Positions 3,001 to 9,000 of a stretch of 48,841 bases of DNA are shown one piece after another. Numbering within the stretch: position 1 is the stretch's first letter; every line of letters begins with the position of its first letter. Source of the stretch: Chthonomonadaceae bacterium (lineage in GTDB: Bacteria; Armatimonadota; Chthonomonadetes; Chthonomonadales; Chthonomonadaceae); assembly GCA_035650735.1 (NCBI GenBank), contig DASRGZ010000133.1, positions 1 to 48,841 on the forward strand, written 5' to 3'. Made by a program: the position numbers.

Positions 3001-6000
3001 ATCTCTGGCCCATAGACGAGTTCTGGAACTTTCATGCGGGCGGCGGCGGGTATCGGAATGTCCAGAACTTCACCGATGCGCTGGAGGGCCGCTATGGGAA
3101 AGCCAGAAGCCTGGAGGATTACGTCAAGAAAAGCCAGCTTATGACCTATGAGGGCGAGCGCGCTATGTTTGAAGCCTTCGGTCGGAATAAATACACGGCC
3201 ACCGGAGTCATTCAGTGGATGATCAACAACGCTTGGCCTTCCTTGATCTGGCACCTCTATGACTACTATCTGCGGCCCGGCGGAGGCTACTTCGGCACGA
3301 AGAAGGCCTGTGAGCCCTTGCACGTGCAATACTCTTATGACGACCGCTCGATTGTCGTCGTCAATTCTTACTACCGCGCCTTTCCAGGCTACAAAGTGAC
3401 CGCCAGGGTCTATAACTTTGACCTCACCGAGAAGTTCTCGAAGGATGCGGCGGTGGATATTGCCCCGGATAGCTCCACGCGAGTCCTTGCGATTCCCGAC
3501 CTGTACGGGCTTTCTCGCGTCTATTTCATTCGGCTCACCTTGCAAGACGAGGCTGGAAAACCGGTCAGCTCGAATTTTTATTGGCTTTCCACGCAGCCGG
3601 ATATTACCGACTGGTACGCCGCAAACGGGCACCACACGCCTATCCAATCGTATGCGGACCTTACGGACCTGGAGAAACTGCCGGAGGTAACGGTCACAAT
3701 TACCTCCCGGTCGGAGCGCCGGGGCGCGGCTCAGATCGAGCACATGACGGTAGAGAATCCGACCTCCCATCTCGCCTTTTGCGTCCACCTGCGCGTGACG
3801 AAGGGCAAGGACGGGGCCGACATCGCGCCGGTCTTCTGGGAGGACAACTATTTTGAGTTGATGCCGGGGGAAAAGCGCGAAATTACAGCGACCTATCCGC
3901 GCAAGCTGCTCGGCAGTGCCCGACCCTTTATCCAGGTGGAGGGATGGAATGTAGCGCCCGCTTCGATATCCCGGTTCTTCCCTCATCGTTCGTAGGAGCA
4001 ATGCCCATGCCTTCGCTTTCGCAACCATCCTTCGATTCGCAAGCCCTGGATGCGCTCGTCCGGGCTGCCATGGAGGCGTGCCAGGTTCCCGGCGCGTCCG
4101 TCGGCATCGTTCACGGCGAGGAGGTCGTCTATCTCAAGGGGTTCGGCGTCAAAGAGGCGGGCAAGGAGGACGAAGTTACGCCGGATACCCTGTTCGCCAT
4201 CGGCTCGACCACCAAAGCGTTCACCACGACCGCAATTGCAATGCTGGTGGACGACGGCAAGATGGCCTGGGATGACCCGGTGCGCAAGCATATTCCGTTC
4301 TTCCGGCTGTCCGACCCGCTGGCAGATGCGAACGTGACGCTGCGCGATCTGGTGACCCATCGCACCGGCGTTAGCCGCCACGACCTGCTCTGGTATGGCT
4401 CCTCCCTGGATCGCGAGGAGATTCTACGGCGTATTGGGCTGGTCAAGCCCAACACTTCCTTCCGCTCGACCTGGGAATATAACAACATCATGTACCTTGC
4501 CGCCGGGGTCGCCATCGGGAAGGCTAGCGGGGGCACCTGGGAAGCGTTCCTTCAGCAGCGCATCCTGGACCCGCTGGGAATGACCGGAGCCTGCTTTAGC
4601 GTCAAGGACGTGCAGCAAGCGCCCGACCGCGCTACCCCGCACGAAAAGGACAAGGAGAAGAACCTCAAGACCGTTCCCTGGCGCAACCTGGACAACGTGG
4701 CCCCGGCAGGTTCCATCAACTCTGGAGCGCGCGACCTGACCAAATGGGTGCGGTTCAACTTAGGAGACGGCACCTTTGCGGGCAAGCGGCTGCTCTCCGC
4801 CGCCAGGCTGGCCGAGTTGCACACGCCGCAGATGGTCGTGGGCCGGGATGAGCAGGCGCGAGCCTGGGAGCCGGAGACCAATATGACCAGCTACGCGCTC
4901 GGCTGGGGCGTGCAGGACTACCACGGCCTCCTGATGGTCCATCACGGCGGCGGCATTGATGGGATGCGCGCGCAGATCAGCCTGATCCCGGCGGCGAAGC
5001 TGGGCGTCATCATCCTGGCGAACGTGGGCAATACCTGGATGCCGGAGGCGCTGCGCAACAGCCTTCTCGATACCATCCTCGGCCTGCCGCAGCGGGACTG
5101 GAACACTCTCTATACCGAACTCGCCGATAAAATGGAGGCCGAGGAAAAGAAGAAAGAAGCCGAGCGGGATGCGAAACGCCACAAGGACACGCGGCCTTCC
5201 CGCGAGCCTGCCGCCTATACCGGAGCTTACGAAGAGCCTGCCTATGGGACGGCCCGCGTCTCGCTGGAAAATGGCTCTCTCGTGGTGCAGTGGAACTGCT
5301 TTCACCTCCCGCTCGAACATTTCCACTTCGATACCTTCCTGGCGAAGAAAGACGATCCCCCGCGCGTCAATGAGCTGGTGGCCTTCACGCTGGATGCCAA
5401 CGGCGATGTGGATACCATGATAGTCCTGGGTATCGAATTCAAGAAGGCCAAGCCCAACCCTGGTGATTAGAATCCACAGATTACACCGATTAAAAAACAA
5501 AGACAAAAGCCTTTGGACAGGATGAACAGGATTTACAGGATTACACAAAGGCAGAGAAGCAAGGCTTGTCCGTGTGGTTGAAATCCGGTTCCTCCCGTTA
5601 ATCCTATCTAAAATCGTGTCTTTTTCGGTGTTAATCGGTGTAATCTGTGGATTCTATCGGGCAATTTGTGAAAAAAGGTTCAAAGGGAAGCGTGTGAACC
5701 TGGCACTTAATAATGAAAACATCTCTGGCGGGAGTTCACACCGAATGGAATTGGGGACACTGGTCTCTCGAATCAGGGCGGGCGATATCTGCGCGTTCAC
5801 CGAACTGGTGCGGCGCTATCAGGATATGGCTTTCGGCTATGCGTTTTCTATCCTGCATGACTTTCAGCTTGCCGAAGACGCCGCCCAGGAAGCCTTCCTC
5901 GCCGTCTATGCCGATCTAGGCGCTCTGGCGGCGCCGGAAGCGTTTCCCGGCTGGCTGCGCGGGATCGTCCGGCATCAGTGTCAGCGGATTCTGCGCAAGC

Positions 6001-9000
6001 GACGGCTGCGCGTCGTTCCGCTGGCGCAGGCGCGCGACATGGCGGAGTCGGCGCCGGGGCCGGAGCGGCAGGCAGAGCGGAAGGAGATGCAGGAGCGCGT
6101 TCTAGCCGCCATCCGTGCGCTGCCCCGAGCGGAGCGCGAGGTGACAACCCTGTACTACATCCAGGAGTACTCCCAGCAGGAGATCGCCGCGTTTCTGGAG
6201 GTGCCGGTTTCCAAGGTCAATAACCGGCTGCACGCGGCGCGCGCCAGACTGAAACGGAGGATGCTTCCCATGGTGAAAGAGACCTTTCAAGAACACGCCC
6301 TGCCGGAGGATTTCGCGGAGAGAGTCGGCAGGATCGTGCAGGTGCAGGGGCCGCTTGTGGACGCGCAGTTCGCGCCCGAAAAACTGCCGGCTGTCTTCAG
6401 CGCACTGACCGTCCAGGACCCGGCGCACAAGCAGCCGGTTACGGTGGAGGTCGCGCAGCATCTTGGCAACGGTGTGGTGCGCTGCATCGCTCTCGCTCCC
6501 GCCGCCGGGCTGAAGCAGGGCATGGAGATCATCAATACCGGCGCTCCGGCCAGCCAGCCGGTCGCTTCGGAGACACTACATCAACTTGCCCAGGCGCTGG
6601 GCAAGGAGCGCACGGAGAAGCCGGAACTGCTGGAAACGGGAATCAAGGCGCTCGATCTGCTCTGCCCCTATGCCCGTGGCGGCAAGGTCGGGCTGTTTGC
6701 GGAGTGGGGACTGGGGCTGCTGGTTCTCATCCCGGAGATCATCCACAATATCGCCACACACCAACCGGGCGTTTGGCTGTTCACCTTCGTGCAGCCGATG
6801 GCAAACCCGAAGGACTGGCAGCAGGTGACGGCTGAGATCGCCGTGCCGGAGGGAGAGATACAGACGATCTATATTCCCACCGCCGACCCTAACGATCCCG
6901 TTATCCCCGCGCAGTTTGATTTTCTGGACGCCAGAACGTACCTGGCCCGCCATCGGGCGCGGCAGCGTCTCTATCCCGCGATAGACCCGCTGCGCTCAAA
7001 CTCGCGCCTGCTTGACCCGGCCCTTGTCGGCCAGGAGCATGTGGAGGTGGCGAACGGCGTCCGGCAGCTTTTGCAGCGCTGCCAGGAGCTACAGCCGCAC
7101 CTGGAATCCACCGGCAGGGAAGCGCTCTCGGAAGAGGAAAAGACGCTGGCGGCGCGCGGCCGTCGGGTAGAGCGCTTCCTGACGCAGCCGTTCTTTGTCG
7201 CCGCGCCCTTTACCGGTGTGCCGGGCCAGTATGTGCCCGTCCAGGAAACCGTGCGGGACTTCAAGGCGCTGCTCGCCGGGGAGTACGACGCCCTGCCGGA
7301 AGAGGCGTTCCTCTATTGCGGCACGCTGGCCCAGGTCGTCGAAAAGGCGAATGCCGCCCGGTAGAGCTTGCCGGCTGGCGCCGGCGTCGCTCAACGGCTT
7401 GCACGGGCGCGATGGGCGGCGCTCCCCTTTGTTGACGCCGAAGCGAACCAGGTGCTATACTCCCTCGAAACAACATCGCGCCGCCGGTGCGCTCTCCGGC
7501 GGCGCGAACCTTTGCCATCGGGAGGAGTTAAAAGGGAATGGAGCGGACTTTTGTCATGGTCAAGCCGGACGGCGTACAGCGCCGACTGGTGGGGGAGATC
7601 ATCCGCCGCTTTGAGACGCGCGGGCTGCGGTTGGTCGGCTTGAAGCTGTTGCAGCCGTGCCGGGATCTGGCCGAGGCGCACTACGCCGTGCATCGCGAGA
7701 AGCCCTTCTACGGCGAGTTGGTCGGCTTCATCACCTCCGGGCCGGTCGTGGCGATGGTCTGGGAGGGCAACGAGGCGATCCGGCTGTGCCGGAACATGAT
7801 CGGGGCGCTCAAGCCGGTGGAGGCGCAGCCTGGCACCATTCGCGGCGACTTCACGACGGAGGTACAGACCAACCTTGTGCATGGCTCCGATGCGCCGGAG
7901 ACCGCGCAAAGCGAGATCGCGCTCTGGTTTCGCCCGGAGGAACTGCTGTCCTGAGCGCTCAGTCAGAGGAACGGCGTCGTTCTCCGCGAGGGAGAAGCGC
8001 CGACAGGACTCTGCGCGCGTGTCTAACGGCTCTCTGCGGAGCGGCGGCTTATCGGCTGCCAGGCGCGGCTGACTTCGGCCCCGCGCCCATCGCCCTTATA
8101 GCCGCGCTGCTCGCTCAGGCTTACCCAGAGTAGGATAAACGTGCCCAGGCCCACCACGCAGCAAAAGATCAGGTGCAGCCCGGACATAAAGCCCGGGCCG
8201 ATTGGATCGGCAGCCGTCCGCAGTATCTCGGTGTCGCCGGTGGCGTAGGCTTCATTCTGGGCGAACTCCTGGCCTGTCGTGGCCCAGACCGCCGCACCCA
8301 GCAGACCATAGAGGAACAGCGCGATATAGCTCCACACCAGCGCCGTGCGTCGGTTGCTGCTGTAGCGTGAGCAGGTCATGCCCAGCAGCACGTACAGGCT
8401 CGCCGACAGCAGCAGCTTGAGCGTCACGGTGATCATCCACCAGCCCGGCTCCGCCGCCCAGCGGGAGCCTTCGCGCAGCAGCATTAGCAGCATCGCCGGC
8501 ACGCAGGAGAACACCGCCAGCCCGACGAGCAGCAGAGAGGCGCAGAACTTACCGATAACCACCTGCGCGTTGGTCAGGCGGGTCAGGTAGAGGTCTTGCC
8601 AGGTCTGCTGCTCATATTCTTTGGCGAAGGCGCCGGCGGCAAACGGAGGCACGATCAGGGGCAGCGCGAAGGCGGGAATCCAGGATAGCGGATAACGCGC
8701 CAGCCCGGCGAACTGGGACAGCCAGATAAGCAGCGCCGTCACCAGCGCCCACAGGCCGATAGCCAGCAGTGGTTTACGGCGAAAAAGGCTCTGGCGGAGT
8801 TCGTTCAAAAAGACCGGGTTTTCCATCGCCGCCTCCTCAGAGAACCATGAAACCTCATCCCTCTCCCGCAGCGCGGATCGCTAGGCGGAGGCGCGAACCA
8901 TTGCAGCGCCGCCCCTGGTAGTAGGCCGGGGTGAGGTCTTTAGCCGCCTGTAAAGCTGCCGCCGGCTATCTCGTAAGATACAGACACCGGCGGCGCGGCA

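Follow-up and report, generated by a model that had tools for sequence, protein, structure and literature searches.

A candidate self-activating ECF sigma factor built on a degenerate F1-ATPase beta subunit

Several ECF sigma factors carry their regulator within the same polypeptide. In ECF41, ECF42, ECF238 and IutY, a fused C-terminal domain controls the sigma factor and there is no separate anti-sigma factor; these extensions are SnoaL, TPR, Cys-rich or membrane anti-sigma domains, and the available part of the source names no ATPase-derived extension or internal start among them (PMC8999054). ECF264, a Firmicutes-only group, bears a DUF1835 extension and has the promoter GTAACCTT / GGCACATT (Casas-Pastor 2021, PMC7826278, available part). 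Another one-gene system is TipA of Streptomyces lividans, which is made from two starts as TipAL and TipAS; the gene is autoregulated and the short form sequesters (PMC7762955, available part).

Here we describe a gene from a Chthonomonadaceae bacterium that can be compared with all of these. It lies in a stretch of 48,841 nucleotides, the window, and its product joins an ECF sigma factor to a remnant of the F1 ATP-synthase beta subunit, the pseudo-beta (Table 1). Like ECF41, ECF42, ECF238 and IutY, it has a fused C-terminal domain as its putative regulator.

Among described groups ECF264 comes closest, although the sigma-pseudo-beta protein does not appear to belong to it. As far as the available part of PMC7826278 describes that group, both have a soluble extension of ~350 amino acids, no anti-sigma factor and a conserved promoter of their own with GGCAC in the -10 element. 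The -35 element, however, is GTAACCTT there and AAAG[GC] here; the extension is DUF1835 there and an F1-beta remnant here (ATP-synt domains, no PF08874 match); and the Firmicutes are replaced by Armatimonadota, Chloroflexota and Alphaproteobacteria. A Paenibacillus sigma-DUF1835 protein (L262) with GTAACCTT...GGCACTT does contain PF08874, and a purine-rich run precedes an internal ATG in its gene. It joins the same sigma clade with SH-aLRT 92, on a long branch of a quick tree that holds one ECF264-like row.

With TipA, as the available part of PMC7762955 presents it, our gene would share two in-frame starts (the second predicted here), putative autoregulation and a short form that would consist of the ligand-binding domain alone. 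The components differ: a MerR activator, a TipAS domain and a known ligand there, a sigma factor and a repurposed ATP-synthase subunit here, with two products and a ligand that are predictions. Pfam finds no MerR HTH or TipAS domain on the 539-aa protein.

An earlier note on this DNA held that a beta extension is not among the described ECF types, and the ECF papers searched, in their available parts, agree. The main text of the ECF re-classification (PMC7826278) does not contain 'ATP', and the available part of its supplement has two unrelated mentions of 'ATP synthase' and none of ankyrin or a bifunctional nuclease. Nor did searches of the openly available literature list a published sigma-beta fusion or an internal start within an ECF.

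Table 1. Features of the sigma-pseudo-beta locus (positions in the window)
Feature	Position	Strand	Basis
Predicted -35 element AAAGG of autoregulatory ECF promoter	5682..5686	+	motif in 42/46 upstream regions
Predicted -10 element GGCACTT, core shared with ECF264 -10 GGCACATT	5702..5708	+	ECF264 motif: PMC7826278, available part of supplement
Ribosome-binding site GGGAG for full-length protein	5730..5734	+	sequence; duplex energy -6.9 kcal/mol
Full-length sigma-pseudo-beta gene, 539 aa	5745..7364	+	uninterrupted ORF; Pfam; homologues
Sigma region 2 (aa 21-87)	5805..6005	+	PF04542 (Sigma70_r2), E 2e-11
Sigma region 4 (aa 117-169)	6093..6251	+	PF08281 (Sigma70_r4_2), E 2e-12
Internal Shine-Dalgarno GGAGG within codons CGG AGG	6256..6260	+	-9.5 kcal/mol; AGG codon bias
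Predicted second product, free pseudo-beta, 364 aa, from in-frame ATG (Met176)	6270..7364	+	ATG conservation across junctions
~19-residue segment after Met176 (MV...LP..F..RV type), candidate sigma-binding piece	6270..6326	+	type A/B profiles; putative role
F1 beta-barrel domain (aa 197-266)	6333..6542	+	PF02874 (ATP-synt_ab_N), E 6e-15; missing from some relatives
Degraded P-loop (aa 319-326), Leu in place of Lys and Thr in this copy	6699..6722	+	alignment
Joint of 70-residue deletion (AtpD 181-250: Glu184, Arg185, Walker B Asp246)	6783..6788	+	gap in 120/120 listed homologues
Adenine-pocket residues Y410, P411, F483, A486, F489, T490	6972..7214	+	all six same as AtpD
Weak terminator-like hairpin (7405-7424) and sigma70-like promoter (7432-7461), before ndk	7405..7461	+	prediction

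The fusion and its degenerate beta domain

The fusion is real. Translation and Pfam both place an ECF sigma factor and an F1-beta-derived part on one ORF, as the note had it. Sigma regions 2 and 4 are present without region 3, as in ECF (group 4) factors, and TIGR02937 scores 95.5 bits against a cut-off of 42.9. Pfam also matches ATP-synt_ab (residues 372-420) and ATP-synt_VA_C (428-512), and the top NCBIfam match is atpD at 317 bits, under its cut-off of 463. The further claim that all 120 listed homologues carry sigma plus an ATP-synt domain was borne out with PF00006 (120/120, best-listed rows, the query counted). An assembly chimera or misjoin is ruled out, because the junction recurs unchanged in hundreds of independent homologues. 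No intermediate joining a sigma factor to an intact AtpD occurs among the best 120, 150 and 120 matches listed. The host does have an intact AtpD of its own, on contig C204; the atpA also attributed to it is absent from the matches, which include only atpD and a FliI-like ATPase.

Alignment to host AtpD covers 348 of 465 positions at 47% identity. The remnant is not the 'full-length' copy reported before: AtpD segments 99-122, 181-250, 265-268 and 274-291 are missing. As the note stated, some 70 residues holding Walker B and the catalytic Glu are deleted, and the gap at 181-250 recurs in 120/120 listed homologues. Because this segment carries the catalytic Glu, Arg and Walker B, the pseudo-beta is, judged from its sequence, incapable of ATP hydrolysis, which the note had also claimed. 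The Walker A loop, said to be lost, is better called degraded. In this copy it reads AEWGLGLL and does not match GxxxxGKT, but among the 120 listed homologues G157 is invariant (120/120), K158 is kept in 83 and GxxxxGK in 81; GxxxxGK[ST] survives in only 2. The Lys is gone in this copy and its nearest relatives, so phosphate binding here would be weak or absent. In type A and type B pseudo-betas alike, Leu or Met usually takes the place of the Mg-binding Thr. Closure of TF1 beta requires the P-loop Thr and the Walker B Asp, and the pseudo-beta has neither.

Besides these residues, AtpD features absent from the pseudo-beta include the PSAVG sleeve, which is deleted, and DELSEED, whose conservation (0.47 and 0.40) is under average. 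The barrel domain is missing from type B and from the type A variants L149, L156, L165 and L178. The sequence disfavours contact with F1 alpha or gamma: the motifs for gamma contact are gone, and some variants lack the barrel. The gene also lies outside any atp operon; the host retains a normal atpD.

What does the remnant keep? It has in common with AtpD the barrel, part of the nucleotide domain, a well-preserved helical domain and the adenine pocket. We take A421 and T425 of F1 beta to be adenine-pocket residues. Y345, P346, F418 and F424 are pocket residues in the available part of PMC5608556. Mean conservation over the six pocket positions is 0.93 in 155 type A and 0.87 in 26 type B sequences, against means over 207 positions of 0.59 and 0.57; 0.05% and 0.5% of randomly drawn sets of six positions do as well. 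The Y335 position is aromatic in 155/155 type A and 26/26 type B. By these measures the adenine pocket is selectively retained, although these figures are uncorrected for burial and folding may explain part of the retention. For isolated F1 beta, nucleotide binding and closure do not require catalysis (PMC10273367, available part).

The AF2 model of the fusion protein has pLDDT 90.2 with a weak stretch at 88-102; the earlier pLDDT of 80 with a disordered linker at 174-192 was not reproduced. The model has the three-domain beta fold with a shortened nucleotide domain (Foldseek E 2e-30). Superposed on F1 beta with VIA-align it gives Z 27.1 over 298 aligned residues at rmsd 10.6, the domains being differently placed. 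A type B model reaches pLDDT 73, and the predicted complex of sigma 1-172 with the extension 176-539 scores 0.02, below the mark of 0.32, and carries no weight here.

Promoter, internal start and neighbourhood

The motif AAAG-N16-GG[CT]AC was found upstream at 42 of 46 loci (best shuffle count 11). The loci are unevenly sampled, 53/70 falling into one cluster at 65% identity. Such an alternative promoter before its own gene is what an autoregulated ECF would have, and this sigma factor presumably recognizes it. The window holds one match against 0.05 expected, and with a matrix trained without it this site has the top score in the genome, 25.7 of 27.9. Elsewhere the motif is no more frequent than chance: sites scoring >=16 number 9 in the host genome and 15 in the control, and two sets of five genomes gave 8 sites versus 22 and 20 versus 42. 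The scan found no regulon in atp genes or elsewhere; on the strand of C204 that carries atpD, no site scores above 8.7. Since the motif marks the gene's own upstream regions and sits at chance level elsewhere, the regulon looks like the sigma-pseudo-beta gene itself, though divergent or unassembled targets may have been missed: sites scoring >=20 number 2 in the host genome and 0 in the control.

A second signal lies at the junction between the sigma factor and the pseudo-beta. AGG encodes 66 of 68 Arg residues at the junction position (87 distinct junctions), as against 4.3% of 3231 other Arg codons. A start codon stands at +7 or +8 after the internal Shine-Dalgarno in nearly every case (ATG in 85/87 junctions, GTG in 1, none in 1). 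The Shine-Dalgarno signal is present in 14/14 lineages and the predicted start in 12/14 after 70% dereplication. Its median duplex energy is -8.4 kcal/mol (n=86), compared with -2.6 for other in-frame ATGs (n=381) and -6.8 for gene starts (n=39). The signal is retained under differing amino acids (CGG AGG, GGA GAR, CGA GGG), and the ATG moves along with it. Codon choice and spacing thus indicate that the second in-frame start is under selection; the conserved run could also serve pausing. The ~19-residue segment after Met176 is common to those clade sigmas with other extensions that were read by eye.

Together with free-standing pseudo-beta genes in a sister lineage, the conserved internal ribosome-binding site and ATG argue that the pseudo-beta is probably also made as a free protein. 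The note had read it as the regulatory extension of a one-component ECF. The loss of catalytic residues and the lack of a nearby anti-sigma gene fit that view, but the internal start, the free-standing genes and the fact that the only promoter to stand out is the gene's own suggest that it probably has a part to play beyond that of a tethered extension.

Pfam identified neither an anti-sigma nor an ATP-synthase gene among 98 neighbouring ORFs, which belong to mixed families. No neighbour cluster occurs in more than 5/54 loci, and those clusters are mostly shadow frames; by eye, neighbours show no enrichment of resistance or defence genes. The hairpin and sigma70-like promoter in front of ndk suggest that the sigma-pseudo-beta gene is transcribed alone, with terminator counts of 3 against 2.2 in shuffles and promoter counts of 1 against 0.4, neither clearly higher.

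Distribution and origin

The architecture had been described as conserved in Armatimonadota and Chloroflexota, which overstates its spread. In 300 other genomes of the host phylum (four candidates scored per genome) a single, frameshifted copy turned up, and the fusion itself in 2/40 relatives and 1/401 Chloroflexota genomes; it also occurs in 4/101 genomes of an alphaproteobacterial family. The alphaproteobacterial genome Rhodospirillales URHD0017 (L001) carries the gene. In a scan of genome contigs, 1/80 loci was a full fusion and the matches were mostly ordinary atpD. This patchy spread, with no fixed neighbours, fits an accessory cassette.

In the sister lineage the pseudo-beta is a separate gene behind a sigma-ankyrin gene at 4/4 such loci read; pseudo-beta also occurs without any sigma (L113, L114, L268-L271). 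The same sigma clade carries other pieces of core machines, namely the PheRS catalytic domain, GspE and GspF. A beta tree that includes 11 Chloroflexota AtpD rows and the least diverged pseudo-beta rows, picked by hand, derives the pseudo-beta once, from an Armatimonadota-like atpD.

Possible functions of the pseudo-beta

We propose, with a probability of about 0.4, a self-activating circuit in one gene, similar to TipA, in which an adenine-like ligand is sensed and the protein that binds it is then made in excess. The cassette would have been assembled from an ECF sigma factor and a captured atpD. Its mRNA would yield the long form, sigma plus pseudo-beta, and, by stronger initiation, a short form that is just the pseudo-beta. 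As long as no ligand is present, pseudo-beta in either form would keep the sigma factor inactive. Binding of an adenine-like molecule without Mg2+ would bring the nucleotide domain and the helical domain together, as happens in isolated beta, and release the sigma factor. The freed sigma factor would transcribe its own gene and fill the cell with free pseudo-beta, which would soak up the ligand and reset the loop. Since no output other than further binder was detected, the ligand would more probably be an adenine compound that does harm or acts as a signal (nucleoside antibiotic, alarmone or damaged nucleotide) than bulk ATP. The missing P-loop Thr and Walker B Asp, the lost Lys of this copy and the lack, by eye, of any enrichment for resistance or defence genes nearby speak against the circuit. 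If this is true, the catalytic subunit of ATP synthase has been reused outside the enzyme as a transcriptional sensor, and uncharacterized extension-bearing ECFs such as ECF264 gain a possible role in which the regulon is the gene itself and the output the free extension. A wider and less probable form of the proposal makes this a mobile circuit, its ECF sigma transcribing only itself and its dead F1 beta serving to sense an adenine-like toxin or signal and, produced in bulk, to soak it up. The circuit would be one of a wide sigma clade in which a hidden internal start lets core-enzyme pieces (F1 beta, PheRS, pilus ATPase parts, transferases) act as decoys in both tethered and free form.

Could the pseudo-beta instead report energy charge, reading ATP, ADP or AMP, with the sigma factor driving a small undetected regulon and the short form serving as feedback anti-sigma? 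The retained pocket, the GxxxxGK of most listed homologues and the nucleotide-driven switching of isolated beta (PMC10273367, available part) are in its favour, as is the adjacent ndk. But ndk adjoins the gene at no other loci and has its own predicted sigma70-like promoter, promoter sites are not in excess in the host genome or seven others, the best site on the atpD strand is weak, and a patchy accessory gene would be an odd home for a core energy sensor; we consider this unlikely. We attach still less weight to a ligand-blind fused anti-sigma, in which, as in IutY, the beta fold is a stable block that proteolysis or unfolding releases; the pocket would be structural and the internal Shine-Dalgarno a relic or pause site. 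Extensions are believed to originate in the fusion of sigma and anti-sigma factors, and proteolysis is what activates IutY (PMC8999054, available part); many pocket neighbours (P336, D339, Q406) are structural and clade extensions are interchangeable. A relic, however, would decay, yet this one persists under different amino acids with its ATG shifting along; exchange of Y, W and F at the stacking position points to function, and pseudo-betas without any sigma exist.

Two further readings make the protein a decoy. One, in which it would divert aurovertin-type fungal inhibitors from F1 beta, is most improbable and we reject it. Beta by itself contains the whole aurovertin site, 100/155 sequences retain R402 (bovine R412) and the setting is soil, but the 17 site residues (PMC9615146, available part) score 0.59 and 0.56, the random level (p 0.52 and 0.55), and the hot spot Y458 is retained in just 29/155. 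The other, with a low probability like that of the ligand-blind block, has the pseudo-beta bind an F1-aimed protein (a phage or toxin inhibitor, or one like IF1 or zeta) or poison assembly via alpha, the sigma loop amplifying it. Such a role would suit the core-machine pieces on other clade sigmas and the preserved helical domain, and a self-only regulon would make the protein itself the output. It sits poorly with the weak DELSEED and deleted sleeve, with model domains placed unlike those of F1 beta and with a best-kept surface that is a small-molecule pocket; the barrel of the alpha3beta3 crown, moreover, is missing in type B and some type A. Such natural minimal variants of beta indicate which parts of the subunit are required for its fold and for nucleotide binding.

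A sigma factor joined to a non-catalytic beta subunit

The earlier note described a sigma factor fused to an F1-ATPase beta subunit on a single open frame, in a genome with a normal AtpD elsewhere. That finding is real, and richer than first described. The frame translates into 539 amino acids carrying Pfam domains for sigma2 and sigma4 and, from F1 beta, the barrel, the helical domain and a portion of the nucleotide domain; both parts are present in 120/120 of the best homologues listed, and an intact AtpD is encoded on another contig (C204). The solved structures matching the protein are F1 beta chains (query stretches 194-294, 287-349 and 371-536), and F1 beta is also the structural match of its AlphaFold model (120-row alignment; pLDDT 90.2, pTM 0.74).

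When the protein is aligned to host AtpD (348 of 465 positions, 47% identity), AtpD stretches 99-122, 181-250, 265-268 and 274-291 are absent. The 181-250 stretch, with Glu184, Arg185 and the Walker B Asp246, is a gap in all 120 listed family proteins, as expected from the reported deletion of Walker B and the catalytic Glu. The reported loss of the Walker A loop stands only in part: the loop as such is retained (GxxxxGK in 81/120), but GxxxxGK[ST] occurs in 2/120 and the window copy has lost the Lys too.

Site conservation was scored in 155 type A (sigma-barrel-remnant) and 26 type B (sigma-ankyrin-remnant) proteins; 75 of 256 fell outside the motif rules and were excluded. With burial not factored in, the six adenine-pocket positions score 0.93 in type A and 0.87 in type B, compared with averages of 0.59 and 0.57 (p 0.0005 and 0.005). 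A421 and T425 we take to be pocket positions; motifs helped to place them and to set the numbering offset. DELSEED is not above average in these proteins (0.47 and 0.40). Y345, P346, F418, F424 and a neighbouring Val are pocket residues in the accessible part of PMC5608556. Judged from sequence, the AtpD-derived module (pseudo-beta) has lost catalysis and kept its adenine pocket.

A predicted internal start and promoter

In 87 junctions of distinct sequence, codon 3 past the final sigma4 Leu is AGG in 66, AGA in 2 and CGN in none. AGG makes up 4.3% of the 3231 other Arg codons in fusion genes, and at four other conserved Arg sites it occurs in 1/87, 1/86, 10/76 and 5/71. Junctions without this Arg carry GGA GAR, CGA GGG or GAG GAG instead. 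The ATG follows at +7 in 77 junctions and +8 in 8. Median anti-SD pairing is -8.4 kcal/mol (n=86), versus -2.6 at 381 other in-frame ATGs and -6.8 at 39 gene starts. Junctions were dereplicated because 53/70 loci fall in one cluster at 65% identity; among 14 lineages (dereplicated at 70%), an SD of -5 or stronger is found in 14 and the ATG at +7/+8 in 12. In protein sequences, Met stands at the junction in 98/119 type A and 16/24 type B, and the ATG recurs in 13/18 sigmas with other extensions. By codon choice and pairing, the internal start is under selection. The described group ECF264, with its DUF1835 extension, is suggested to have one too (see the L262 row).

Features of the fusion locus and comparison loci
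Feature	Position	Strand	Basis or remark
Fusion gene	5745-7364	+	539 aa
Own promoter motif (predicted)	5682-5708		motif match
Internal SD	6256-6260	+	junction pattern, anti-SD pairing
Internal ATG	6270	+	predicted 364-aa product
Serine beta-lactamase-family + DUF3471 gene	3944-5470	+	directly upstream
Nucleoside diphosphate kinase	7538-7954	+	just downstream; own sigma70-like promoter (predicted)
GH2 glycoside hydrolase	1311-3995	+	exo-beta-glucosaminidase type
GH2 glycoside hydrolase	21469-24309	+
1266-aa protein	30498-34298	+	three domains: GH18, polysaccharide deacetylase, GT2
Planctomycete-type cytochrome c protein	46725-48632	+	DUF1587/1595/1592/1588/1585
Sigma-less type A pseudo-beta	L113:1000-2853	-	N-terminal membrane protein of no Pfam family
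Sigma-less type A pseudo-beta	L114:1-2541	+	N-terminal membrane protein of no Pfam family
ECF264-like sigma, Paenibacillus illinoisensis	L262:448-2094	-	GGG GGT AAA GGC ATG immediately ahead of DUF1835
Second same-clade sigma, GNAT-like extension	G000:C96:147872-149455	-	49% identical

The upstream DNA was long enough in 46 of 54 non-redundant loci; among those 46, AAAG-N16-GGC is present in 41 (shuffles, at most 11) and AAAG-N16-GG[CT]AC in 42. When the matrix was built from the other 41 sites, leaving out the window's site, that site ranked first in the 6.5-Mb genome (25.7 of 27.9). Own site counted, the genome held 9 sites versus 15 in the reversed control at score 16, 4 versus 2 at 18 and 2 versus 0 at 20. 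In other carriers the exact pattern gave 8 matches versus 22 controls in a first set (3 own promoters; four of the other five inside open frames) and 20 versus 42 in a second (4 own promoters). On these counts the regulon looks like the fusion gene alone, several scanned genomes being incomplete and divergent targets possible.

Relatives, origin and surroundings

Profile searches also recovered barrel-less type A proteins, type B proteins retaining a degenerate 181-246 and lacking about 247-275, and free-standing type B proteins. Four genomes of the Chloroflexota sample have a sigma-ankyrin gene ahead of a separate pseudo-beta gene, the stop of one overlapping the start of the other in L268. 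This two-gene form (L268-L271) has GTAACC...GGGAC upstream; the L269 sigma has an apparent frameshift near its start. Two genomes from the same family as the window's host lack the sigma part and have type A pseudo-beta fused to a membrane protein instead; we assign that family as Chthonomonadaceae from a named protein that is identical to L111. A frameshift past the P-loop breaks the type A gene L082 (G229:C40), whose barrel region also contains an inserted Pro/Ala repeat; its promoter motif is intact.

A 50-row tree, of hand-picked rows and with a long stem, makes types A (93/91) and B (100/98) sisters (96/97), and places two Armatimonadota AtpDs as the sister of A+B (95/94) rather than the 11 Chloroflexota AtpDs; an earlier tree had A and B intermixed. 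On these sequences AtpD was probably captured once, with separate deletions afterwards.

Type A turned up in 2/40 relatives, 1/401 Chloroflexota genomes and 4/101 genomes from the family to which Rhodospirillales URHD0017 belongs; 300 genomes of the phylum yielded a single copy, which is frameshifted. Of 120 loci recovered by pattern scanning of metagenomes, 92 have the fusion. No conserved neighbour gene was found across fusion loci, and no anti-sigma or ATP-synthase gene among 98 flanking ORFs. L161 and L198 are also flanked by beta-lactamase-family genes, L198's with DUF3471; L007 has a short extension that is DUF3471-like by eye only. The nucleoside diphosphate kinase gene does not adjoin fusion loci elsewhere. 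Within 5401-6000, GC falls to 0.51 across the intergenic region, where short repeated motifs occur; the coding part is host-like (0.64-0.66).

Possible function and wider clade

Beta in isolation can bind nucleotide and close with no catalysis (PMC10273367, in part), which makes the fold a ready-made switch. The evidence for a mechanism consists of absent catalysis, a retained pocket, a promoter motif of the gene's own, an internal start under selection and free-standing relatives. Our leading, still tentative reading (probability about 0.4) is a loop that both senses and soaks up an adenine-like compound: the extension would hold sigma inhibited, ligand would release it, and the free pseudo-beta would be put to use in the loop. 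With no other targets, the fusion protein itself would be the output, as in TipA, a Streptomyces lividans MerR regulator with two in-frame starts (PMC7762955, in part).

An energy sensor whose regulon went undetected is the nearest rival, though unlikely. A protein decoy or F1 brake is rather doubtful, and a ligand-blind anti-sigma equally so. Least probable by far is an aurovertin decoy: scored on the sites listed in the part of PMC9615146 available, the aurovertin site is not above average (0.59 in the 155 type A, 0.56 in the 26 type B proteins).

The fusion protein is an ECF sigma, and probably a relative of ECF264; judged from the available part of PMC7826278, it differs from that group in extension and -35 and is therefore no member. 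Its beta part is not a working AtpD. It is not TipA-class by kind, but by analogy may work like TipA. Literature searches, including the accessible parts of the ECF surveys PMC7826278 and PMC8999054, found no paper on a sigma/F1-beta fusion. Among extension-bearing ECF sigmas, the unusual donor domain, apparently self-only regulon and predicted second product would be new.

In a quick tree the sigma core falls within a 64-row clade (SH-aLRT 92), where other extensions are PheRS catalytic domain, bifunctional nuclease, ankyrin, TPR, nucleotidyltransferase, GspE and GspF. The host's second such sigma, GNAT-like by eye, has GGA GCG ahead of Met codons at its junction and a GGCTCCTT element upstream. 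L083, L084, L085 and L146 join same-clade sigmas to the PheRS catalytic core alone, and are candidates for a second enzyme-derived decoy; L083-L085 have their own upstream motif (AAAGAT...GGGTCTT), L083 and L084 an AGG-ATG junction. In L097, L099 and L174 the sigma carries GspF-like or GspE N-terminal pieces.
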